DNA of 58,456 nucleotides from Clostridia bacterium. Lineage in GTDB: Bacteria; Bacillota; Clostridia; Oscillospirales; SIG627. The notes below the pieces were generated by a model that ran no database searches, was not told the origin of the DNA, and saw only the letters and a list, made by a program, of their open reading frames with translations. Positions 2,473-52,182 of this stretch are shown piece by piece; the stretch's first letter is position 1; each line of letters begins with the position of its first letter. The stretch lies in the NCBI GenBank assembly GCA_017414535.1, contig JAFQMA010000015.1, forward strand, positions 1 to 58,456, read 5' to 3'. A program made the translations under genes and the position numbers.

Positions 2473-4188
2473 ATGTATCGTACCGAGCATCCCAAGCCCC
2501 AATTTCAAAGAAACAGCTGGAGAAATCTCAACGGAATCTGGGAATTCCGCTTCGACCCCGCCCGTAGCGGCCGTCAAACGGGGCTTTACGAGCCCGAGGC
2601 AATCTTCCCCTTAAAGATCAACGTCCCCTTCTGCCCCGAAAGTGCCCTGTCCGGCATTGAGGAGAAGGATTTTCACCACGCTGTCTGGTACCGCAGGAGC
2701 GTTTCCCTCTCCGGGGAGGAATTAAAGGGCCGCGTGAGACTGCACTTCGGTGCCGTAGACTACGACGCCTTCGTTTACGTCAACGGCAAGCGCGTAGGCA
2801 CCCACCGCGGCGGCTATACCTCCTTTTATTTTGATATTACCGATCACGTTCAGGAGGGCGAAAACACCCTCGTGGTCTGCGCCGAGGACGATACCCGCGA
2901 TCCCTTGATCCCCTCGGGCAAGCAGAGCGACCGCTTCCATTCCTACGGCTGCAGCTATACCCGCACCACGGGCATCTGGCAGACCGTGTGGCTGGAATTT
3001 CTGCCCGAGGCTCATATTGAAAGCGTCAGATACCTGACCGACGTGACCGCCTGCACCCTCACCGTACGCGCCAAGGTGGCGGGCGAGGGCACCCTTTGCA
3101 TCCGCGCTCTGTACAACGAGCGCTGTGTGGGCGAAGCCACCGCCGAGGGACAGGACGGAGACGAGCTGATCCTGACCCTGCCCCTGTCGGAAAAGCATCT
3201 GTGGGAGCCCGGTCACGGCCGCCTCTATTCCCTCTCCCTTTCCTACGGAGAGGACAGCGTGGAAAGCTATTTCGGCCTGCGCTCCATCCGCCTTTCCGAA
3301 AGAGACTTTCTCATTAACGATAAGAAGGTCTTCCAGCGTCTGGTGCTGGATCAGGGCTTCTATCCCGACGGCATTTACACCGCCCCCTCCGATAAGGAGC
3401 TGGCGGCGGATATCGAGCGCTCCCTTGCCATGGGCTTCAACGGTGCCCGCCTTCACGAAAAGGTCTTCGAGGAAAGATTTCTCTACCACTGTGACAGACT
3501 GGGCTACCTGGTCTGGGGCGAATTTGCCAACTGGGGTCTGGATCACTCGAGAGAGGATGCCCTCTTCTCCTTCCTGCCTCAGTGGCTGGAGGCGGTGGAG
3601 CGTGACAGAAATCACCCCGCCATCATCGGCTGGTGCCCCTTTAACGAGACCTGGGATATAAACGGAAGACAGCAGAGGAACGAGCTTTTGTCCTGCGTGT
3701 ATCTGGCCACCCGTGCCGCCGATCCCTCCCGCCCCTGCATCGATACCAGCGGCAACTACCACGTGATCACCGACGTTTACGACCTGCACGATTACGAACA
3801 GGATCCCGCCGTGTTCCGCGAGCATTACGAGCCCTTGGGCAAAACGGACGATCTGCGCTTTGCTCAGGTCTTCCGCGACCGCCAGATCCGCTACGACGGA
3901 AAAAGACCCTTCTTCGTCAGCGAATACGGCGGCATCAAATGGAGCGAGGAGCAGGGCAGCTGGGGCTACGGCAACGCTCCCAAGTCCGAGGAGGAATTTC
4001 TCACCCGATTAAAGGGACTGACCGACGTCCTTTTGGATAACGAGCATATGTTCGGCTACTGCTATACCCAGCTCACCGACGTGGAGCAAGAGCAGAACGG
4101 CCTTTACACCTACGACCGCCGTCCCAAATTCGATCCCGCCGTCATTGCCGCCATCCTTGGCCGCAAGGCAAAATATGAGGAGGAATAA
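2473..4188 (+). CDS. Glycoside hydrolase family 2 (beta-galactosidase/beta-glucuronidase-like), 571 aa
   Basis: ATG 2473 is preceded by AAGGAG. Sugar-binding N-terminus LNGIWEFRFD. WCPFNE acid/base motif and SEYGG nucleophile motif. The first 429 codons of track ORF 1186..4188 are antisense to the GRE gene. Confidence 0.85.
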   Translation: MYRTEHPKPQFQRNSWRNLNGIWEFRFDPARSGRQTGLYEPEAIFPLKINVPFCPESALSGIEEKDFHHAVWYRRSVSLSGEELKGRVRLHFGAVDYDAFVYVNGKRVGTHRGGYTSFYFDITDHVQEGENTLVVCAEDDTRDPLIPSGKQSDRFHSYGCSYTRTTGIWQTVWLEFLPEAHIESVRYLTDVTACTLTVRAKVAGEGTLCIRALYNERCVGEATAEGQDGDELILTLPLSEKHLWEPGHGRLYSLSLSYGEDSVESYFGLRSIRLSERDFLINDKKVFQRLVLDQGFYPDGIYTAPSDKELAADIERSLAMGFNGARLHEKVFEERFLYHCDRLGYLVWGEFANWGLDHSREDALFSFLPQWLEAVERDRNHPAIIGWCPFNETWDINGRQQRNELLSCVYLATRAADPSRPCIDTSGNYHVITDVYDLHDYEQDPAVFREHYEPLGKTDDLRFAQVFRDRQIRYDGKRPFFVSEYGGIKWSEEQGSWGYGNAPKSEEEFLTRLKGLTDVLLDNEHMFGYCYTQLTDVEQEQNGLYTYDRRPKFDPAVIAAILGRKAKYEEE

Positions 4189-14554: not shown

Positions 14555-14736
14555 GAGGGCCCCCTTTTCGGGGGAGGACCTTTTGCAAAAGGCAGTCTGC
14601 CCCGGCGAGGGAAGGTGGCGCGGCAACGCCGTAACGGATGAGGTCGCCATGGATCTCTCCCCCTCCCCAAAAACCTTTCGTGTTTATTTTTCAGAAATGA
14701 GGCCTTTCTGCCAAAACGGCAGGAAGGCTTTTCTTC
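14555..14736 (+). repeat. Composite terminator repeat, copy A
   Basis: G/C-rich hairpins around CTTTT..AAAAG cores, a CCCTCCCCAAAAAC box, then a GAGGCCTTTCTGCC-AAAA-CGGCAGGAAGGC hairpin with a T-run. Same layout as copies at 32100, 37132 and 46693. Confidence 0.6.
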
Positions 14737-18459: not shown

Positions 18460-19776
18460 ATGAAAATCACCTTCATCGGTGCGGGAAGCACCGTTTTTGC
18501 CAGAAACGTCATCGGTGACTGCTTTCTGACCGACTGTCTGAAAAACGCCACCTTCGCCCTGTACGATATCGACCCCAAGCGTCTGGAGGAAAGCCGCGTG
18601 ATCCTCACCGCCATGGCAAAAAGCATCGGTCTTCAGGCCGATCTGCAATGCTACGTGGGAGTAGAACGCCGTCGGGAGGCCCTGCGCGGGGCGGACTTTG
18701 TCATCAATGCCATTCAGGTGGGCGGCTACGAGCCCTCCACCGTTATCGATTTTGAGATCCCCAAGAAATACGGTCTGAGACAGACCATCGGCGATACGCT
18801 GGGCATCGGCGGCATCATGCGCGCCCTGAGGACCATCCCCGTCATGGAGGATTTTGCCCACGAAATGGAGGAGGTCTGCCCCAAGGCGCTCCTTCTCAAT
18901 TACACCAACCCCATGGCCATGCTTTGCGGCTATCTCCAGCGCTACACCGCCGTCAATACCGTAGGTCTCTGCCACAGCGTACAGGGCTGCTCCCGCGGGG
19001 TGCTTCGCTCCGTTGGTATGGAGGATAGGATCGAGGGTCGACGCGATCTTATCGCCGGCATCAACCACATGGCGTGGCTCCTGGAGATCCGCGATAAGGA
19101 CGGACGCGACCTCTACCCCGAGATCAAACAAAGAGTGGAGGAAAAGCTGCGCGATCCCGATTTTAACAATAAGGTAAGGCTGGAATACATCAAATATTTC
19201 GGCTATTACTGCACCGAATCCTCCGAGCACAACGCGGAATACAACCCCTTCTATATCAAATCCGCCTATCCCGATCTCATCGCGCGCTACAATATTCCCT
19301 TGGATGAATATCCCCGCCGCTGTATCGCTCAGCAGGAGCAGTGGAAAAAGGAATACGGGGAGCTACTGGAGGGTGCCGAAAAGACCTTCTCCCGCACAGA
19401 GGAATACGCCTCCCATATCATGGAGGCCGTAGTGACGGACCGTCCCATGCGCATCGGCGGCAACGTCTTGAACCAAGGCCTGATCACCAACCTTCCCGCC
19501 ACCGCCTGCGTAGAGGTACCCTGCCTGGTGGACGGCAGCGGCGTTCGCGGCTGCTTCGTGGGCGATCTGCCCGAGATCTGCGCCGCCATGAATCGCACCA
19601 ATATCAACGTGCAACTGCTCACCGTGGAAGCGGCCAGAACGAAAAAGAAGGAGCACGTCTATCAAGCGGCCATGCTGGATCCCCACACCGCCGCAGAGCT
19701 TCCTCCCCATAAGATCTGCGCCATGGTGGATGAGCTCATGGAGGCCCACGCTCCCTTCCTTCCCCAATATCACTAA
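18460..19776 (+). CDS. melA: GH4 alpha-galactosidase
   Basis: N-terminal NAD-binding KITFIGAGSTVFARNVIGD as in MelA. CHSVQG block. 438 aa. Confidence 0.85.
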   Translation: MKITFIGAGSTVFARNVIGDCFLTDCLKNATFALYDIDPKRLEESRVILTAMAKSIGLQADLQCYVGVERRREALRGADFVINAIQVGGYEPSTVIDFEIPKKYGLRQTIGDTLGIGGIMRALRTIPVMEDFAHEMEEVCPKALLLNYTNPMAMLCGYLQRYTAVNTVGLCHSVQGCSRGVLRSVGMEDRIEGRRDLIAGINHMAWLLEIRDKDGRDLYPEIKQRVEEKLRDPDFNNKVRLEYIKYFGYYCTESSEHNAEYNPFYIKSAYPDLIARYNIPLDEYPRRCIAQQEQWKKEYGELLEGAEKTFSRTEEYASHIMEAVVTDRPMRIGGNVLNQGLITNLPATACVEVPCLVDGSGVRGCFVGDLPEICAAMNRTNINVQLLTVEAARTKKKEHVYQAAMLDPHTAAELPPHKICAMVDELMEAHAPFLPQYH

Positions 19777-19941
19777 AGAAAAAAGAGACCGAACACGGAG
19801 ACACTTCGAAAAGAAGTAGTCTCCGATTTTCTATATAAAGCAAATGACACTTTCAGTTTTTGAAAGTGTCATAGTGGGTTACATACTTTGAGAATGGTAA
19901 ATACTTGCCGAAAATAAAGAATCTCTTTCTCGGCAGGTAAA

Positions 19942-20118
19942 GTGATATTGCAAACGATCGTTTGCAGTGATATTTTTGCCTTGCAGCAAAAGTGGTATCG
20001 AAACCTAACGGTTTCAGTGATATTATATTCGCCCATTTAACTGTCCGAAGGACAATATCACTATGCGTAGCATAATATAACTGCGCAGCAATATCACTCG
20101 CCGCAAGGCGAATATAAC
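19942..20118. repeat. Phased 7-mer / mini-hairpin array (GTGATAT x4, then ATAT(C/A)AC x4)
   Basis: GTGATAT at 19942, 19967 and 20017, and GTGGTAT at 19992, give an exact 25-nt period with 18-nt palindromic spacers. ATATCAC at 20055 and 20091. ATATAAC at 20075 and 20112. These right-hand boxes are separated by 9-14-nt hairpins. Confidence 0.8.
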
Positions 20119-20148
20119 TGAGGCACCTTCCTTATGGAGGGTGCCTCA
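20119..20148. terminator. Strong 13-bp-stem hairpin adjacent to the right terminal repeat
   Basis: TGAGGCACCTTCC-TTAT-GGAGGGTGCCTCA, followed by TTCGGTCTCTTTTTTT. Lies downstream of the fur-family gene on the minus strand. Confidence 0.55.
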
Positions 20149-20170
20149 ATTCGGTCTCTTTTTTTGCGTT

Positions 20171-20551
20171 TTATTCCGCTGCCTTTTGGCAAGCGGGGCA
20201 AACGCCGTACAGCTCCACGTGGCGGGAGGAAATGGCGTAGCCGTAATTCTTCTCAAGCTTCTCCAGCCCCATAGGGGGCAGGGCCTCGTCGTGCACGTCG
20301 CCGCACCGGGTGCAGATCACGTGGAGGTGATCCTTGGCATCGCCGTCAAAGCGATCCTCCGGTCCCACGTGCAGGCGTAGGATCTCACCCTCGTCGGCGG
20401 CATTTTTCAAAACACGGTACACCGTAGCCTTGCTCAGGTTCGGATATCGCTCCTTCAGGTCCTCGTACAAACGGGTGGCGGAGGGATGATCCCGACGAGC
20501 GCGGAGCTCTTCAAAAATGGCTTTTTTCTGAGCCGTGTTGCGTTTTTGCAT
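20171..20551 (-). CDS. Fur-family metalloregulator (Fur/Zur/PerR type not resolved)
   Basis: Winged-helix N-terminus (TAQKKAIFEEL...SKATVYRVLK). HLHVICTRCG and CPAC zinc-site CxxC pairs. 126 aa. Confidence 0.85.
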   Translation of the reverse strand: MQKRNTAQKKAIFEELRARRDHPSATRLYEDLKERYPNLSKATVYRVLKNAADEGEILRLHVGPEDRFDGDAKDHLHVICTRCGDVHDEALPPMGLEKLEKNYGYAISSRHVELYGVCPACQKAAE

Positions 20552-32254: not shown

Positions 32255-33259
32255 TTAGTTCTCAAGGAATTCGGTCAAAAGGGGATATTCTTTTCCGACC
32301 TCGTGCCCGTCTAAAAAGAAGGCAACGTCCTCGGCGCTTTCAACCGTGATTTTCTCTTCGGGCTCGATAAAAAGGAACCATCGACCAATGTCAGAGGTTG
32401 CACCGAGTCTTGTGGTTTCAACACTCAGAGAAAGTTTCCCTTCTGCCTTGCGCTTCAAAGCCTCCACCTCGTGCGTGTACCCGCCGCTTTCTCTGATGAT
32501 CTGAGCCAAAATAAGGATGCGATCATTAAAATAGTCCTCATTATAACGGGAAGTCGCTTCCAAAAAATCGGTATATTCGAGGCTTTGACATTCTTCGCCG
32601 TAGGCCTTGCAGAAATTATTCCATTCTTCTGCGGAACGGAATACCTGCAGGGGCTCACCGTAAAGGTCAAGCACGCGAAGGGTCTGCTGAGAAAAGACAA
32701 CGTCCGTGAAATTCGTTGGCGTCATTCCTGTTATATTGAAATTAGCCCATGCTTCAACGGTAGAGGAGGCAGAAGCTTCCTCCTCCGGTCGAATTGTGAT
32801 GAAGAGGCGGTAATCACCGTTATCAAGGTAGCCGAACAAGTGATTCAGCCCCAAAAGAGAAAGCGGATTTTCCTGCAATTTTAAATTTTTCCTAAACACA
32901 TCCGAAGAAAGATAACCGATGCGGTCCAACTGTTCCCCTTTGTATTCGGCAATGGTCTCCCAATGATCGCCAACCTTGCATTGCATGAAAAGATCCCAGT
33001 TTTGATAACTTCTTCCGCAGGCCGGTGTGTATTTGATAACAAGCCACGCTTCCTCCTTTGACCACGCGTGCTCGACGATCTCAATTCCGTATTCTTCATG
33101 GGTCGAGCCGCTCTCCCCGATCTCAATGGCGGGGACTTCTGGCTCGGCGGGGGTGGTTACGGGAGAGGTAGCGGTGGCCTGCGGGGCTTCCGCGCCGCAG
33201 GCAAAAAGGGAGGGCAGCAGTAAAATCCCCACTAAGAATATGGTCAAAATTCGTTTCAT
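32255..33259 (-). CDS. Lipoprotein, unknown function (paralog I)
   Basis: AAAGGAGGA RBS before MKRILTIF. Lipobox LFAC. The N-terminal ~52 aa are nearly identical to 47375..48355; the rest is diverged. Confidence 0.75.
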   Translation of the reverse strand: MKRILTIFLVGILLLPSLFACGAEAPQATATSPVTTPAEPEVPAIEIGESGSTHEEYGIEIVEHAWSKEEAWLVIKYTPACGRSYQNWDLFMQCKVGDHWETIAEYKGEQLDRIGYLSSDVFRKNLKLQENPLSLLGLNHLFGYLDNGDYRLFITIRPEEEASASSTVEAWANFNITGMTPTNFTDVVFSQQTLRVLDLYGEPLQVFRSAEEWNNFCKAYGEECQSLEYTDFLEATSRYNEDYFNDRILILAQIIRESGGYTHEVEALKRKAEGKLSLSVETTRLGATSDIGRWFLFIEPEEKITVESAEDVAFFLDGHEVGKEYPLLTEFLEN

Positions 33260-33411
33260 ACCGTGTCCTCCTTTCAAAAAGAAAAAGCCCGCAGCGATCC
33301 GCTACGGGCGTTCATCCAAAAAAGACGTTTGTTCGGCGGATGGATGAACTTATACCCATGCCGAAAAAGCTTCCTTGTCTCTATGATAGCCGTTTTCTTT
33401 GTGAATGTCAA
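33260..33411 (-). promoter_or_regulatory. Promoter plus terminator-containing leader of lipoprotein paralog I
   Basis: On the minus strand: TTGACA (33406-11), 17-nt spacer, TATCAT (33383-88). The leader ends in GCCCGTAGCG-GAT-CGCTGCGGGC plus a U-run (33275-33309), directly before the RBS. Confidence 0.65.
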
Positions 33412-33534
33412 TGGTTTTTCACATCTTTTTTCAAGAGCAAAAGAATGCTACGGATGAGGTTCGGGAGAGCCTTTTTTAAGTCCTTTTTATTGTACACCGC
33501 ATCCCTTATAATGGCATTGTAAGGAGGGATAAAA

Positions 33535-35787: not shown

Positions 35788-37119
35788 ATGAACAAGCTTT
35801 ACGCAGGCTTTGCCACCACGGATATTACCCCCGCTATGGGCACCCCCATCAAGGGCTACTACGTCGAACGCTTTGTGGAAGGCGTTTTGGATCGTCTCTC
35901 CGTCCACGCCCTTTGCCTGCAGGCAGGAGAAAAGAAGGTCGTGCTCATCAGCTGCGATCTGGTGGGCGTTCCCACCAACATAGGCAAGGAGACCTGCGCG
36001 CTGGTGGCGGAAGCGATGCATATTCCCGTGGAGGCCGTCTATCTCCACGGCACGCATACCCACACCGGCCCCTCTCTCCATGAGGATCACCCGCTGGTCA
36101 ACGAATACGTCGCCTTTTTCAAAAAGCGCGTGGTGCAGGCGGCTCTCTTGGCCGAGCAGGATCTCAAGCCCGCCCGCATGGGCTACGGCATCGGCCGCGC
36201 CCCCAACGTTTCCTTCGTGCGCCGCTTCCGTATGAAGGACGGCTCCGTGGCTACCAATCCCGGTGTGAATAACCCCAATATCCTCCACCCCATCGGCGTC
36301 ATTGACGACCGCGTCAGCGTGGTGCGCTTTGACCGCGAGGGTGACAGCGTGGTGCTGGTCAACTTTGCCAACCATCCCGATACCGTGGGCGGCAGTCTTG
36401 TCAGCGGCGACTGGCCTTACTTCCTCCGCGAGACCGTGGAGCGCGCCCTGCCGGATACCCGTTGCATCTTCTTCAACGGCGCACAGGGCGATATCAACCA
36501 CGTCAACGTGTTCCCCACGGGCGGCTATCTCAACGACACCTTCAACGATTTTGACGACGTATCCCGCGGCTACAAGCACACCCGCTACATCGGCCGCGTG
36601 GTGGCGGCAGGCGTTCTGCAGGCCTTCGATAAGGTGCAGTACGTGGACGTAGAGGATCTTGCCTTCGGCCACCGCAGCTTCGAAGCCCCCAGCCAGATGC
36701 CCACCCCCGAGGAGCTGCCCGAGGCCATTCTCATCAACGAGCTGCACGTGACCGGCCGCGACGCCGAGCTGCCCTATCAGGGCATGATGCTCACCACCAT
36801 GGTGGCCGACGCCGCCCGCAAGGTGCGCCTGAAGGACGGCCCCGCCTCCTTCCCCATGACCCTCTCCGCCGTTCGCGTAGGCCCCGTGGCCTTTCTCGGC
36901 ATCCCCGGCGAGCCCTTCAACGGCATCGGCCGTGCCATTAAGGAGACCGAGGGATTTGACATGGTGATCCCCACCTGTCTCACCTGCGGCTATCAGGGCT
37001 ATTTCCCCATGCAGGATGCCTACGACGAGGGCGGCTACGAGGCTCGCTCCTCCAATTACAAGGCAGGCATCGCCGAGCTCATCGTCTCCGAGGCACAGAA
37101 GCTTCTGGCCACGTTATAA
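35788..37119 (+). CDS. Neutral/alkaline ceramidase-like metallohydrolase, paralog 2
   Basis: Collinear with paralog 1 (MNKLYAGFATTDITP, HGTHTHTGP, NGAQGDINH). Tandem, with a 23-nt gap. Confidence 0.65.
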   Translation: MNKLYAGFATTDITPAMGTPIKGYYVERFVEGVLDRLSVHALCLQAGEKKVVLISCDLVGVPTNIGKETCALVAEAMHIPVEAVYLHGTHTHTGPSLHEDHPLVNEYVAFFKKRVVQAALLAEQDLKPARMGYGIGRAPNVSFVRRFRMKDGSVATNPGVNNPNILHPIGVIDDRVSVVRFDREGDSVVLVNFANHPDTVGGSLVSGDWPYFLRETVERALPDTRCIFFNGAQGDINHVNVFPTGGYLNDTFNDFDDVSRGYKHTRYIGRVVAAGVLQAFDKVQYVDVEDLAFGHRSFEAPSQMPTPEELPEAILINELHVTGRDAELPYQGMMLTTMVADAARKVRLKDGPASFPMTLSAVRVGPVAFLGIPGEPFNGIGRAIKETEGFDMVIPTCLTCGYQGYFPMQDAYDEGGYEARSSNYKAGIAELIVSEAQKLLATL

Positions 37120-37131
37120 GAATTTGTATTT

Positions 37132-37243
37132 TGCGGGGGAGAACCTTTTTGAAAAAGGCTTCTCCCCCGCACCCCTTTTCCAAAAACTTTTATTTTTTTC
37201 TTTATGCAAGCAAAAAGAGACCGAAACTTCGGTCTCTTTTTTG
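37132..37243 (+). repeat. Composite terminator repeat, copy C (its second hairpin is the uninterrupted GAGACCGAA stem)
   Basis: GCGGGGGAGAACCTTTTTGAAAAAGGCTTCTCCCCCGC hairpin, CCCTTTTCCAAAAACTTTT box, then AAAAAGAGACCGAA-AC-TTCGGTCTCTTTTTT (37212-42). Confidence 0.75.
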
Positions 37244-37252
37244 TTTTTTGCG

Positions 37253-38278
37253 TTATTTCGTCTTTAACGTGGCAAAGAGGGTGTCCGTATCCTTGGTGAC
37301 GGCGAAAAAGAGAGTGGTGCCGTCGGCGGAAAAGGCAGGTGAAGCGGCGGGATGGCCGTAATCGCTGTCGAAGCGTGTCAGCTCCTCCCCCGTCTCCATG
37401 GAATACACCGTCACCGTACCGCCCTCGCCCACACGGCGGGTACCGCAGAGAAGGGTGCCGTCGGCACTTACAGCCACGTCGTCAAAGGGCGTTTCGGCGG
37501 AAAAGCTGCGGGTGATGCCCTCCTCGGGATCCCGATAGAGATACACCGCCGAGCCGTCGTCGGGGAGGCTTTCGAAGAGAAAGGCCGTGCCGCCCAGGGG
37601 GGTTACCCGATCGTATACGAAGGGCACCGTGCGTTCGGGCACGGTCTTGCCGTATTCAAAATAGGCCATGCCCGTGAAGGCACCCTCCTTCTCGGTGGCG
37701 TACCAGATGCGCCGTCCGTCCTTGGATACGCCCAGCACGCGGGAAAAATCGGGCAGCTCCGCCGTATCGGCCAGCACCAGGGTCTCCTTCAGATCGGCAG
37801 GCAACAGCACCAAAAGGGATCCCCTCTCCCCGATCATGGACAGCGCAGGATGGATCACCCCATCGGTCAGATCCGCCTCGGGCCGCTCCAGCCTCGTGGC
37901 GGAGCCCTCCTTTAAAAAGAGCAGATAGGCCTCGGTCTCGGTAAAAAGCAGGGCTCTGTCCCGCTCCGTCTCCATGACCCGCACCGATGCGGGTGCGCCT
38001 GCCGCCGTTAAGATCCGTTCGGCGGAAACGCTTCTGGAGGGAGACACAAATCCTGCGGAAAAGCCCTTGTCCGAGGGATGCACGTAAAGAAAGCCGTCGG
38101 ACAGAGGGAGATACACCGCTTCAAGGGCATCGCCGCCTCCTTGGGGCAACGCCATGCGAAAAAGGGGCTCCGCGGCGGCGGAAGGGCCGCTCTCCCCCGT
38201 CACAGCCTCCCCGTCACCACAGGCGGCAAGGGAGAGCAGCATAAAAAATGCCAAGCAAAGAGAGAAGATCTTTTTCAT
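37253..38278 (-). CDS. Lipoprotein with PD40/TolB-like beta-propeller repeats
   Basis: Start MKKIFSLCLAFFMLLSLAAC (lipobox). SKDGRRIWYAT / SADGTLLCG / SADGTTLFFAV repeats. Confidence 0.7.
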   Translation of the reverse strand: MKKIFSLCLAFFMLLSLAACGDGEAVTGESGPSAAAEPLFRMALPQGGGDALEAVYLPLSDGFLYVHPSDKGFSAGFVSPSRSVSAERILTAAGAPASVRVMETERDRALLFTETEAYLLFLKEGSATRLERPEADLTDGVIHPALSMIGERGSLLVLLPADLKETLVLADTAELPDFSRVLGVSKDGRRIWYATEKEGAFTGMAYFEYGKTVPERTVPFVYDRVTPLGGTAFLFESLPDDGSAVYLYRDPEEGITRSFSAETPFDDVAVSADGTLLCGTRRVGEGGTVTVYSMETGEELTRFDSDYGHPAASPAFSADGTTLFFAVTKDTDTLFATLKTK

Positions 38279-38357
38279 AAAAACCTCACTTTCACGTATC
38301 AATATACCATATTTGCGGAAAATATGGTTAAGAATTTGTGAATTGAAGGGAGTCGCC

Positions 38358-39053
38358 ATGAATCACGACGAAAGAGAAGAAGCCCTGGGTGAAGAAAGAG
38401 CATCCTGCCCCGCCGAGGGGGAGACCCCGTGGAATCGGGTCATCACAGGAGAGGGCGTTCGCATCCAGACCATCCCCATCATCGGACAGATCGAGGGACA
38501 CGCCGTCCTGCCGCCACCTGCCAAGACCACCAAATACGAGCATCTTTTGCCGGAGCTGGTGCTGGCGGAGGAATCGGAGGAGGTAGACGGGGTACTGTTC
38601 CTCATCAACACCGTAGGAGGAGACGTGGAGGCGGGCCTTGCCATGGCGGAAATGATCGCGGGCATGACCAAGCCCACCTGCTCGCTGGTGCTGGGCGGCG
38701 GTCACTCCATCGGCATTCCCCTGGCGGTGGCGGCAGACCGCGCCTATATGGCGGAAAGCGCCACCATGACCGTCCATCCCGTGCGCATCAACGGCCTCGT
38801 TTTGGGCGTGCCCCAGAGCTTTGAATACCTGACCCGTATGCAGGAGCGCATCGAAGCCTTCATCCTCGCCCATTCCCGCATTGCCCCCGAGGTCTTTCGC
38901 CGCTTTCTTACCGGACACAGTGATATGGCCACGGACATCGGCTCCATTCTGTCGGGACGGGAGGCAGCCGCCTCGGGGCTGGTGGACGGGGTCGCCTCCT
39001 TCGGGCAGGTCATGGCCCACTTGAAAAAAATGGCAAAACAGAAAAAAGGCTGA
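38358..39053 (+). CDS. ClpP-family protein, TepA-like
   Basis: GAAGGGAG RBS. FLINTVGGDVEAGLAMAEMI matches the ClpP INSPGG..AGLAIYD block. 231 aa. Confidence 0.7.
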   Translation: MNHDEREEALGEERASCPAEGETPWNRVITGEGVRIQTIPIIGQIEGHAVLPPPAKTTKYEHLLPELVLAEESEEVDGVLFLINTVGGDVEAGLAMAEMIAGMTKPTCSLVLGGGHSIGIPLAVAADRAYMAESATMTVHPVRINGLVLGVPQSFEYLTRMQERIEAFILAHSRIAPEVFRRFLTGHSDMATDIGSILSGREAAASGLVDGVASFGQVMAHLKKMAKQKKG

Positions 39054-46869: not shown

Positions 46870-47215
46870 CCGGCGTCCCCGACGGTCCGCCTGCGGGGCA
46901 TGGTGAAACAAACTCACACTCACCCATGTGCCTGCGTCGCACCCCAACCTTTCGTTCGGGTCTGTTTGTAGGGGAATTTATCATAATCATTCGGGCGGGC
47001 GTTGCCTTCCCGGTCGGGGGAAGGAGGAGGCGTTAGCAGCAAGTCTGCACCCTGTCCCCTCCTGTAAAAAAACGAATTAAATCTACACGGTAGGGCGGGG
47101 GCTTGCTCCCGCCGCAACGTAACAAATTTTGCTTTCCTATCCTCCTATCCCGCTCCGTAACCGTACGTACCGTTGTAGGGGCAAGCTTCGTTCGCCCGAA
47201 TAGAAGAATGTTAGA
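46870..47215. other. GC-rich, hairpin-dense non-coding spacer (REP-like cluster or unknown ncRNA)
   Basis: No credible ORF. Hairpins: GGACCG..CGGTCC, CATGGTGA..TCACCCATG, CCTTCCC-GGTCG-GGGAAGG, GGGCGGG..CCCGCC. Three GTAGGG(G/C) motifs. Long-range complement ATTCGGGCG (46989) / CGCCCGAAT (47193). Confidence 0.4.
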
Positions 47216-47220
47216 AACTA

Positions 47221-47374
47221 TTGACATTCACAAAGAAAACGGCTATCATAGAGACAAGGAAGCTTTTTCGGTATGGGTATGAGTTCATCCATCTGCCGAA
47301 CAAACGTCTTTTTTGGATGAATGCCCGTAGCGGATCGCTGCGGGCTTTTTCTTTTTTAGAAAGGAGGACACGGT
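47221..47374 (+). promoter_or_regulatory. Promoter plus terminator-containing leader of lipoprotein paralog II
   Basis: TTGACA (47221-26), 17-nt spacer, TATCAT (47244-49). Hairpin TTCATCCA..TGGATGAA (47284-47321). Terminator GCCCGTAGCG-GAT-CGCTGCGGGC plus TTTTTCTTTTTT (47323-57), immediately before the AAAGGAGGA RBS. Confidence 0.7.
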
Positions 47375-48355
47375 ATGAAACGAATTTTGACCATATTTTT
47401 AGTGGGGATTTTGCTGCTGCCCTCCCTTTTTGCCTGTGGAACAGAGCCGCAGGCTACCGCCACCGTCCCTGAAACCACCTCCGCCGCGCCCGAAGTCCCC
47501 GCCATCGAGATCGGAGAGAGCGGAACCTTGTTGGAGGGCTTTTCCCTTGGCATAACGGAGCATGCATGGTCACAAGAGAACGCCTATTTTAAACTGGCGT
47601 TTTCCTTTCCCCCGCAAGAGATCGCCGCGACCGAGAACTACCGTTTTCGCATTTTGCGCCAAACGGACCATGCATGGGAGCTCTTTCACGATTATGATAA
47701 GCAAGAACGCGGCGTTGTTCGGATGACTCACCGTTTCGATCCCAATACACAGACGTACGGCGCGTACTGGGGTTTAACCGATCTTTTCCACCGTTTTGAA
47801 AGCGGAACGTACCGTTTTTCTGTCACGTGCAAGGTTACACTTGCAGCAGACGGCTCTACCACGGCGGCGGAGGCGTGGACAGAGTTTCAAGTTCTTGCTC
47901 CGGCGCACGCGAATGCAGGAGGCGAACGGGAAAACGTATCCTTTACCGAGCAGTACTTCTCCGCCACGGAGATAGGCCCTTATGAGTCGCCCCGTATCAC
48001 GGTCCTTCGTTCTGTGTCCGAGCTGGACGTCTTTTTGGAAAAAAATGAAACAGCGCGCGAATACACCGCCCATTGCGACGAAGCCTATTTCAAGGAACGG
48101 ATGCTGATCGTCTTAAGTCTTTATCAAGATAGCCAAGGAAACAAATGCGCCGTAGATTTTGTGAACACAGATGAAACCGGAAGGCTTTACGTAGGAGTCC
48201 ACTGCATTTCCAAAAGCGGAATCCCCGAAGGGGAAAACAAGATCGTGCTCATTGAGCCGTCCTTTAAAACCGAAAGGAACGAGGACGTGACCCTTTACTA
48301 CAACGGCTTTAAAGTCGAGAATGCACCCGCCCAAAAAGCCGTAACCGAATCATAG
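47375..48355 (+). CDS. Lipoprotein, unknown function (paralog II)
   Basis: MKRILTIFLVGILLLPSLFAC lipobox. Shares its N-terminal module with 32255..33259. Confidence 0.75.
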   Translation: MKRILTIFLVGILLLPSLFACGTEPQATATVPETTSAAPEVPAIEIGESGTLLEGFSLGITEHAWSQENAYFKLAFSFPPQEIAATENYRFRILRQTDHAWELFHDYDKQERGVVRMTHRFDPNTQTYGAYWGLTDLFHRFESGTYRFSVTCKVTLAADGSTTAAEAWTEFQVLAPAHANAGGERENVSFTEQYFSATEIGPYESPRITVLRSVSELDVFLEKNETAREYTAHCDEAYFKERMLIVLSLYQDSQGNKCAVDFVNTDETGRLYVGVHCISKSGIPEGENKIVLIEPSFKTERNEDVTLYYNGFKVENAPAQKAVTES

Positions 48356-51927: not shown

Positions 51928-51944
51928 AGATCATCTTTTTTTAA

Positions 51945-52182
51945 AAGCCGTGATGAGACCAAGTACCCGTTGGTTCCTCCTTTCAGAGAGCTGTCGGCCG
52001 CTGCGAGACAGCAAGGAGCCCCGTGGGGAATACAGCTCGGAGCTGCCCCGAGGAAATGCGGGGTCGGGATCGCCCGTTACAGCGCAGGGATTTTTCCCGC
52101 TGAGGCGGCCGCAGGGCCGTAAATCAGAGGTGGTACCACGAGATCATCGTCCTCTGCCGTAAGGCAGGGGACTTTTCTTTTT
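51945..52182 (+). promoter_or_regulatory. T-box riboswitch, tyrosine (UAC) specifier
   Basis: GUGAUGAG K-turn (51950-57). AGUA (51962-65). AGAGAG bulge (51985-90). Specifier loop GAA-UAC-A (52028-34). F-box CCGUUA (52074-79). T-box AAAUCAGAGGUGGUACCACGAG (52121-42). Terminator 52151-82. Confidence 0.85.

Follow-up and report, generated by a model that had tools for sequence, protein, structure and literature searches.

A 355-bp gene-less element with hairpin ends, a predicted origin of transfer and a Gut-1-type array in the loop of a Clostridia transcription terminator

What has come to lie between the two halves of a transcription terminator in a Clostridia bacterium of the Oscillospirales? 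The stretch of DNA that we analysed, contig JAFQMA010000015.1 (58,456 nt; hereafter the window), carries a family-4 glycosyl hydrolase gene (melA-like, GH4; 18460-19776, + strand; Pfam Glyco_hydro_4 and Glyco_hydro_4C, E 1e-61 to 1e-64) that converges with a gene for a Fur-family regulator (20171-20551, - strand; PF01475). A first-pass annotation made from the sequence alone had placed the two stop codons at 19776 and 20171, which the list of open reading frames (ORFs) and the Pfam matches bear out, and had pointed to two arms between them: AAAAAAGAGACCGAA at 19779-19793, 2 nt after the GH4 stop codon, and TTCGGTCTCTTTTTT at 20150-20164. We confirm that the arms are perfect reverse complements and that the same stem is found intact, as AAAAAGAGACCGAA-AC-TTCGGTCTCTTTTTT, at 37212-37242, 17 kb away, where convergent ORFs (35788-37119, +; 37253-38359, -) flank an ordinary bidirectional terminator. 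This stem is absent from all 250 other loci fetched for comparison (given L-numbers from L001 where they must be told apart), and the intact terminator is the kind of site that the element described here occupies. The arms have the features of intrinsic terminators, namely an A-run, a GC-rich stem, a short loop and a T-run at the 3' end of a gene, and when arms are joined in silico across the family of related loci, ordinary terminators with loops of 2-8 nt result, as the annotation had supposed for the present pair.

Based on our comparisons, we propose that the 355 bp at ~19795-20149 are a non-autonomous element, integrative and mobilisable, which is related to the Tn4451-type mobilisable transposons but has no genes, and we give this proposal a probability of roughly 0.7. 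It is carried by defined hairpin ends, a terminator-loop location, an origin of transfer (oriT) of MOBV1 type that also occurs in relaxase-bearing elements, a 2-nt flanking repeat, alternative cargo on the same chassis and spread across species. The annotation had seen in the interval a hairpin-only sequence that was either a miniature inverted-repeat transposable element (MITE) or an insertion into the terminator loop; its observation was real and its interpretation was right in part. No ORF of at least 60 aa lies wholly between the arms, as it had stated, and the interval folds far above shuffled sequence (z -14.8 and -15.8 on the two strands). The label hairpin-only does not hold, since a recognisable oriT and two Gut-1-type arrays are found inside.

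The ends of the element can be read from the points at which its copies cease to resemble one another. The copy between GH4 and fur (copy 2) is alike with those at L034 and L112, in other species, from about -220 to +133 of the centre of its array, which corresponds to 19796-20149. In pairs of the long form of the element (defined below) from different species, 92-96% identical, similarity stops at -220 to -250 and at +132 to +135, and elements that are 94-96% identical inside have unrelated arms and unrelated neighbouring genes. Because the similarity of near-identical copies ends exactly at the inner edges of the arms, the arms belong to the flank and not to the element, whose proper extent is ~19795-20149 (355 bp). 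Therefore, the 15-bp arms, which the annotation had considered as terminal inverted repeats of a MITE, are the host's, the two halves of a split target terminator, and the true ends are two hairpins: a left terminal hairpin (hpL; CGGAGACACTTCG-AAAA-GAAGTAGTCTCCG, 19796-19825, +) and a right terminal hairpin (hpR; GAGGCACCTTCC-TTAT-GGAGGGTGCCTC, 20120-20147, +), which by its sequence and the family alignment repeats hpL in inverted orientation. Both contain a single bulged base. The family hpL core, CACTTCGTAAAGAAGTG, agrees at 15 of 17 positions with the reverse complement of the consensus hpR core, CACTTCCTTACGGAGTG; the window's own hpR core is CACCTTCCTTATGGAGGG. Together with a T-rich tail (19826-19835), hpL looks like a replacement terminator for the upstream gene.

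The other suggestion of the first-pass annotation, an element in the loop of a terminator, stands. In most related loci the flanks are complementary halves of an A-run/GC-stem/T-run structure that is specific to the locus, and the split stem is a different one at every long-form locus. With fixed anchors at the hairpin edges, the 32-nt flanks of 22 long-form loci gave a longest perfect complementary run with a median of 10 nt (at least 9 nt in 14/22), whereas controls pairing flanks of different loci gave a median of 6 nt, with 6.5% at 9 nt or more (Mann-Whitney p=6e-10). The right-hand neighbour gene is directed into the element in 20 of 22 resolved loci. A scan of offsets around the terminal hairpins further showed that the dinucleotide outside hpL is identical to that outside hpR in 18 of the 22 loci, at a single offset pair only; every other pair gave identity in at most 8/22. 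GA and AA are the commonest junction dinucleotides, TT, AT and TA are also used, and identical dinucleotides are found in 5 of 8 metagenome cases as well. The family thus has a 2-nt direct repeat at its junctions, where the annotation had proposed to look for target-site duplications. Copy 2 itself is one of the four exceptions, with CA on the left (19794-19795) and AA on the right (20148-20149). The same layout can be recognised in the 2010 Gut-1 alignment, in which BAAZ01000095 has a split stem, GGGGCUGCCG...CGGCAGCCCC, with GA at both junctions; the flanks printed there already contain the second arm of the array.

A further copy lies at the window's edge (copy 1; 1-155, - strand), inverted and cut, with hpL, oriT and a small hairpin. 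The annotation had noticed it as a repeat of the left ~155 bp of copy 2, and we measure 85-88% identity for this part. It had also proposed to extend the contig leftwards; exact-protein look-up led to contigs of the same organism (L001, L002), on which copy 1 is complete, with its right-hand part and flanks of its own (354 bp; L001:12199-12552). Its neighbours are genes for a PFL-like glycyl-radical enzyme and a protein kinase, and it sits in an outer split stem, AAAAGAGCCGAC...GTCGGCTCTTTT, different from that of copy 2, with AA at both junctions. The two copies are 85% identical to each other and their flanking genes are unrelated (PFL-like/kinase versus GH4/Fur), whereas copy 1 is 92% identical to L038, and copy 2 is 95% identical to L112 and 94% to L034, all in other species and beside unrelated genes. 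The stems of the two large hairpins are spared between the copies, in agreement with the annotation, but the changes are not limited to loops as it had suggested.

Its call for a count of copies found a clear answer: upwards of 150 loci related to the element are present in other genomes and metagenomes. A pattern made of the 16-nt array centre and the following reverse box was found at no fewer than 120 loci, all of those listed coming from metagenome-assembled genomes of gut or rumen Oscillospirales. Two architectures can be distinguished among 128 arrays, a long form like the window's, with 31 instances, and short forms, with 97 instances, from which the left ~110 bp are missing along with the terminal hairpins. 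No conserved synteny was found among the at least 120 loci listed, and all-against-all BLASTP of flanking ORFs at the 128 instances revealed no conserved neighbour gene, the largest cluster being one of 7 XRE-type regulators. The nearest Fur homologue, 97% identical, has the element too, on contigs (L123, L124) that break off 66 nt beyond the stop codon of fur, within hpR and the first unit of the array; the next, at 72%, has different neighbours and a plain terminator. A phage origin was considered and rejected, as the array centre and the oriT core each gave 1 match in 2.9 million viral contigs and there was one weak match in a phage database.

The short forms have features of their own. Many of them (L004, L009, L013, L015-L018, L025, L036, L039, L048, L050-L052, L063-L065, L069, L071, L072, L076, L079, L082, L083, L097, L098, L103, L104, L108, L120, L122 and others) close with AATATAACT(G/A) and, behind it, a terminator hairpin of one of five recurrent types; in 35 instances 0-2 nt separate this terminator from the CCA end of a tRNA gene (13 kinds) or tmRNA gene that converges on it. 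From one species to another, the same array-plus-terminator (92-95% identical) has different tRNAs as neighbours. At the opposite end from the tRNA, an outward module (L014, L015 at 3500-3580 and 1560-1640, L033, L043, L051, L052, L055, L059, L103 and others) combines a -35 TTGCnn, a 17-nt spacer, an extended -10 TGCTATAAT, an unusual ribosome-binding site AAGGCGGTGAT and ATG, in front of genes for unrelated small proteins (lipoprotein-like, zinc-ribbon, XRE regulators); this module looks like a portable promoter. The left modules of short forms gave no match when searched against plasmids. Arrays also often occur in pairs a few kilobases apart, as at L012 (2.7 kb apart), L064 (2.3 kb), L109 (3.7 kb), L010, L021, L072 (tandem) and L044 (palindromic); several pairs are direct repeats, 96-98% identical, and the pairs bracket lipoprotein, membrane and RhuM-like genes, which suggests cassette-like units.

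Within the long form, the most conserved part by family alignment is the block that we assign to transfer: 19844-19889 is a predicted MOBV1-type oriT. It consists of a 12-bp perfect inverted repeat, ATGACACTTTCA-GTTTT-TGAAAGTGTCAT (19844-19872, +), equivalent to IR1/IR3 of the pMV158 oriT and more than 90% conserved across 32 long-form loci, and of a nick region, ATAGTGGG/TTACATACTTT (19871-19889, +), with the nick predicted at G19878/T19879. The hairpin at 19844-19872 is followed by AGTGGG/TTAC, in line with the MOBV1 arrangement of an inverted repeat and a nick motif within ~8 nt. The published pMV158 ORIT 42-mer, GCACACACTTTATGAATATAAAGTATAGTGTG/TTATACTTTA, whose nick motif is GTGTG/TTATAC (PMC3105389), aligns with AATGACACTTTCAGTTTTTGAAAGTGTCATAGTGGG/TTACATACTTTG of the window, and the alignment takes in the ACTTT direct repeat, the hairpin that immediately precedes the nick and the stretch overlapped by the mob promoter. 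A promoter scan detected a pair, TTGAAA-16-CATACT, that overlaps the nick region; since the mob promoter overlaps oriT in pMV158-type sites, such promoter-like hexamers can be accounted for by the oriT.

The same site stands in front of relaxase genes elsewhere. In a BLASTN search of the 386-bp unit, arms included, against plasmids, 19858-19889 was identical at 32/32 nt to IncHI2 plasmids of Enterobacteriaceae. There (L126) the site lies 67 nt upstream of a gene for a "plasmid recombination protein" (Pfam Mob_Pre, E 5e-35), which is followed by TnpW and then a DUF4368 large serine recombinase; since mob, TnpW and the DUF4368 recombinase lie in series, the IncHI2 element is a Tn4451-like mobilisable transposon. 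At L129 the oriT sequence is upstream of mob as well. When metagenomes were scanned with a 25-nt oriT core, at least 120 loci were obtained; ~70 of the matches listed have mob ~95 nt downstream and, in most cases, tnpW and a serine recombinase behind it, and ~8 of those listed are gene-less long forms, some of which (L141, L176, L226) use other box variants. An IS200/IS605 or IS630 partner, which the first-pass annotation had in mind, gained no support, the internal 32 nt being instead the oriT found upstream of Tn4451-like Mob/Pre relaxases. Two other occurrences of the core may be recorded. One abundant, near-invariant human-gut sequence with the 25-nt core (L131, L134, L147, L154, L171, L178 and ~20 more metagenome loci) has neither the left hairpin arm nor mob within 3.5 kb downstream, and the Kurthia gibsonii (Bacillales) plasmid pND2a (L127, 20471-20503) has the core at 32/33 nt with no relaxase annotated nearby, adjoining a CatB-type acetyltransferase gene and an IS1182 element.

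The ends of the element, too, may be shared with autonomous relatives. Three metagenome loci (L168, L180, L213) have the gene order oriT-mob-tnpW-serine recombinase, and ~25 nt after the recombinase stop each has a hairpin that matches the consensus hpR core at 17/17 positions. L168 and L180 diverge right after this hairpin, and L213 ends inside it. Since the divergence comes immediately past the hairpin, an hpR-like hairpin is probably the right end of an autonomous oriT-mob-tnpW-serine-recombinase element. The chassis can also carry something other than the array: L244 (5215-6250) and L249 have a 1.0-kb hpL-oriT-hpR unit in which the array is replaced by a divergent gene pair for a 162-aa membrane protein (no Pfam match) and a 71-aa HTH_3 (XRE-type) regulator, a cargo that may be defence or toxin-antitoxin-like. 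L249 sits in a split terminator with TT at both junctions.

Between the oriT and the right end lies the box-and-hairpin array, the reason for the Rfam match of the locus. A small imperfect hairpin, TACTTGCCGAAAA...TTCTCGGCAGGTA (19902-19939, +), which the alignment finds in part of the family only, precedes the left half-array (19940-20028, +; weak match to Rfam Gut-1, 29.1 bits, E 0.0016). In this half, boxes AGTGATATT at 19941, 19966, 19991 (variant AGTGGTATC) and 20016 point rightwards and are separated by three perfect hairpins unrelated to one another. The centre, GTGATATTATATTCGCC (20016-20033, +), was found by inverted-repeat and promoter scans; its TTATATTCGCC is complementary to GGCGAATATAA at 20107-20117, and it also reads as an extended -10 (TG-n-TATTAT). 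The right half-array (20030-20120, - strand) matches Gut-1 (RF01706) in cmscan at 58.9 bits, above the gathering score of 50 (E 3.7e-09), and has reverse boxes AATATCACT/AATATAACT at 20054, 20074, 20090 and 20111, pointing leftwards, with hairpins that include a GCGCAGC mini-hairpin. In the window as a whole, 17 boxes are observed where 5 are expected. Among 18 related loci, 11 have a Gut-1 match at or above the gathering score, in L004 with both arms. Forward and reverse boxes change together between subfamilies, in which GTGATATT, GCGATAT (L141), ATGATATA (L176 and L226) or GTGAAAT is used; subfamilies with the same two-armed architecture and other boxes are seen at L015 (1560-1860, -), L141, L176 and L226, with the pairs GTGAAAT/ATTTCAY (the Rfam consensus type, 74 bits), GCGATAT/ATATCGC and ATGATATA/TATATCAT.

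Does the array act as RNA, as its Rfam entry implies, or as DNA? Among the distinct spacer hairpins (194 in left halves, 115 in right halves), ~89% of stem positions are Watson-Crick paired, and the remainder shows no strand preference, with G.T against A.C at 25 versus 26 (left) and 17 versus 11 (right). Both strands have the same layout of a sense arm followed by an antisense arm, and the joint change of forward and reverse boxes between subfamilies likewise points to a role at the DNA level. The equality of G.T and A.C together with a "sense" arm on both strands argues against an RNA made from one strand. A conserved 7-nt spacer, GCGAAGC or GCGNAGC, recurs in the arrays; as DNA this sequence forms an unusually stable mini-hairpin, and as RNA its 2-bp stem would not hold. 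The array lies directly 3' of the predicted nick, and its unit, a hairpin then AGTGAT/ATT, resembles the hairpin then AGTGGG/TTA of the oriT. We weakly favour, on these grounds, a role as folded single-stranded DNA (complementary-strand priming, single-strand promoter or protein binding) over one as strand-specific RNA.

From these parts a mechanism can be suggested for the element. A helper large serine recombinase acting in trans would excise and insert it by a 2-bp crossover, with a preference for palindromic sites such as terminator loops. Excision would leave a circular joint, ...GGTGCCTC-NN-CGGAGACAC..., and a restored GH4-fur terminator, GAGACCGAA..TTCGGTCTC. A helper Mob/Pre relaxase would nick at G19878/T19879, and the + strand would be exported via the mating pore of a co-resident conjugative element. 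As the array is directly 3' of the nick, it would enter the recipient first, where it would act most probably as folded single-stranded DNA; this is the weakest step of the scheme. After insertion, hpL with its T-rich tail and, from the other side, the reverse complement of hpR with AGUUAUAUU would replace the split terminator, and the cost of insertion would be low.

Several observations weigh against this reading. Copy 2 does not have a perfect 2-nt repeat (CA versus AA), and a 2-bp repeat is also compatible with a DDE transposase. The fetched Fur-homologue loci, in which the next relative has no synteny, gave no empty site, no circular joint and no strain polymorphism, so that the comparison of filled and empty sites proposed by the annotation yielded no pair. 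No transposase is seen in the window, as the annotation had said, and neither it nor a relaxase or recombinase is found in the window or the fetched flanks; the co-residence of a helper is therefore putative. In a tBLASTn comparison covering the window and every genome locus, Mob, TnpW and the serine recombinase together brought up a single match, to a distant recombinase. The hairpin behind the recombinase of the L168 type could be a mere terminator, and a left end of that element was found neither from pairwise boundaries nor by a search for the complement of its right flank. Ends of the hpL/hpR type were not found on the IncHI2 Tn4451-like element, nor on the Kurthia plasmid. The short forms, 97 of 128 arrays, have neither oriT nor terminal hairpins and often abut tRNA genes; since they are the majority, the array has a life independent of the oriT chassis that our model does not explain. 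As for a role at the DNA level, Rfam classes Gut-1 as RNA, and the promoter-like hexamers face the array, so transcription is possible; the canonical terminators at the ends of short forms are likewise an argument for an RNA role.

These points must be weighed with the rival explanations. The element could be a classical MITE, on whose hairpin terminal repeats a DDE transposase would act in trans with a 2-bp target-site duplication, the oriT being a passenger or relic. Terminal inverted repeats (hairpin cores alike at 15/17) and a 2-nt direct repeat in 18/22 loci are what such an element would have, the plasmid-borne Tn4451-like element is without ends of this type, and the variety of dinucleotides (GA, AA, TT, AT, TA) includes palindromic AT and TA, which are awkward for a serine-recombinase crossover that sets polarity. 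The dinucleotide follows the subfamily of the element, however, GA being present at 7 of the 9 loci whose hpR is of the "cgcctc" type and at 0 of 13 others, which is better understood if it is carried by the element than if it is a random target duplication. A hairpin with the hpR core probably marks the end of an element with a serine recombinase gene, and in ~1.6 Mb of fetched loci, though not searched systematically, we came across no DDE transposase bounded by such ends. No part of the long form is better conserved than the oriT block, so the oriT appears to be in use and not a passenger. The many near-identical copies per genome expected of a MITE are not seen either: copies 1 and 2 share just 85% identity, and each is more similar to elements of other species than to its partner. 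We consider the MITE unlikely. The nearness of the two copies, within 20 kb and inverted, might instead suggest paralogous 3' untranslated regions from a segmental duplication with nothing mobile, one of the outcomes that the first-pass annotation had named as fatal to its own view, none of which is borne out. Here the similarity is limited to the 354/355-bp unit between unrelated flanking genes, the copies resemble those of other species (92% and 95%) more than each other (85%), and over 150 related loci exist in other genomes and metagenomes; this explanation is hardly credible.

A vertically inherited gene for a structured non-coding RNA, Gut-1, would explain the match above the gathering score, the very strong predicted folding, the promoter-like sites facing the array, the many hairpin loops that read UUCG or GNRA on either strand, and the canonical terminators that close the short forms; the arms would then be a closing helix or terminator, and their differences between loci compensatory covariation. 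Gradual covariation cannot produce elements that are 94-96% identical with wholly unrelated arms and neighbours, nor does the absence of conserved synteny among the at least 120 loci fit vertical inheritance. G.U is not above A.C in the hairpins, the promoter-like block is the oriT common to relaxase-bearing elements, and a transcript from it would exclude the left arm. We regard an RNA gene of this kind as very unlikely. Still less probable is a host repeat of the repetitive extragenic palindrome or bacterial interspersed mosaic element type (REP/BIME), kept by a RAYT-type HUH transposase for mRNA stabilisation or the binding of nucleoid proteins, despite the position between convergent genes, the hairpins in both orientations, the several copies per genome and an array unit (hairpin then AGTGAT/ATT) that we take to resemble HUH recognition sites. 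The palindromes differ within and between copies while only the linker boxes of 8-9 nt are conserved, the opposite of REPs; the unit keeps the same ends, does not vary in length (354 and 355 bp) and carries an oriT, near-identical copies occur across species, and no RAYT gene was seen, although no genome-wide search was made.

If the mobilisable element is accepted, it bears on Gut-1 itself, an orphan non-coding RNA motif known only from human gut metagenomes and published without further comment (Weinberg et al. 2010); within the literature library that was searched, the name turned up solely in that discovery paper. After standing as an orphan Rfam family since 2010, Gut-1 gains a context as one arm of a two-armed hairpin array on mobile DNA. 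We raise the tentative idea, on which we would not bet at even odds, that the "RNA motif" is a single-stranded-DNA device of conjugative transfer, whose units mimic the hairpin-plus-nick geometry of a MOBV oriT, and that scattered oriTs could allow helper-driven chromosomal transfer like that of high-frequency-of-recombination (Hfr) strains. An array in the leading region would then prime the complementary strand, form single-strand promoters, or serve as extra sites for the relaxase or recombinase. If this were true, hundreds of gene-less oriT elements in terminators, with related arrays at tRNA 3' ends, would scatter transfer origins through gut Oscillospirales chromosomes.

Beyond this idea, the element may be the smallest kind of conjugative hitch-hiker, with ends, an oriT and a hairpin array in ~355 bp. 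Its rule of insertion, into a terminator loop with a 2-nt repeat and with its own hairpins in place of the terminator, suggests spread at almost no cost to the host. The family occurs in many uncultured gut and rumen Clostridia, and surveys keyed to relaxase or integrase genes would miss such elements; oriTs scattered over chromosomes could be of consequence for gene flow within the gut microbiome. Short-read metagenome assemblies, moreover, appear to be broken by the elements, as the contig ends in the 97% Fur relative suggest.

The window contains other repeats and a leader that have no part in this argument. A ~330-bp repeat at 33090-33460 and 47170-47540 (inverted, 91% identity) is shared by two lipoprotein genes, in which it spans the signal-peptide end and the region upstream, a terminator-like hairpin included; what has been duplicated is a promoter with the 5' end of a gene, and the element has no part in it. 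The motif CCCCAAAAAC(T/C)TTT... is intergenic at 14661, 32140, 33356, 37174 and 46728 (five copies, 69-83% identity), often beside hairpins, and a T-box leader lies at 51941-52157 (+; Rfam RF00230, 108 bits).

How does the element compare with known systems? It has its oriT in common, at 32/32 nt for a plasmid-borne member, with the Tn4451/Tn4453 group of Clostridia, which encodes TnpX (a large serine recombinase), TnpZ (a Mob/Pre relaxase acting at an upstream oriT) and TnpW. The serine integrase of Tn4451 recombines 2-bp identical sequences with low target specificity, and several copies are found per genome (PMC5704250). A 2-bp flanking repeat, low target specificity and several copies are likewise seen here, and the hpR-core hairpin probably ends one such element. 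Unlike Tn4451 (~6 kb), the window's element has 355 bp, no genes and a Gut-1 double array instead, and its hairpin-shaped terminal repeats were not seen on the plasmid-borne Tn4451-like member. We know of no report of Tn4451 insertion into terminator loops.

Elements that have lost their integration and transfer genes, keep recombination ends and an oriT and depend on a helper are known as cis-mobilisable elements (CIMEs), relaxase-less islands and "iOriT" islands (PMC5704250; bioRxiv 10.64898/2026.01.13.699239). The CIME and iOriT islands measure kilobases, carry cargo genes and usually use one attachment site, whereas the present element is MITE-sized, cargo-free and found in many terminators, in gut Oscillospirales outside the coverage of the surveys of those islands. 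MITEs and mobile insertion cassettes are similarly small and non-autonomous, with terminal inverted repeats and a short flanking repeat; the window's element differs in its oriT, and no DDE parent was found for it in the fetched loci. Other elements are known to target hairpins, such as IS1397 and ISKpn1 in REP loops and class C group II introns at terminators. Class C introns insert after the terminator, whereas this element inserts in its loop, and our literature search found no paper on oriT-bearing miniature elements in terminators.

The oriT of pMV158, the MOBV1 prototype, similarly has a hairpin (IR1/IR3) with the nick motif within 6-8 nt (ATAGTGTG/TTATACTTTA, compared with ATAGTGGG/TTACATACTTTG in the window); unlike it, the predicted oriT of the window has a longer stem (12 bp) and no relaxase gene downstream. 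As for Rfam Gut-1, the right half-array fits the model, its units being hairpins spaced by GUGAAAU-like boxes; unlike Gut-1 as published, it is here one arm of a two-armed inverted array in mobile DNA, without strand bias in its wobble pairs. Taking these comparisons together, the most fitting place for the element is among the Tn4451-type mobilisable elements, as a miniature variant that lacks genes and includes the Gut-1 motif.

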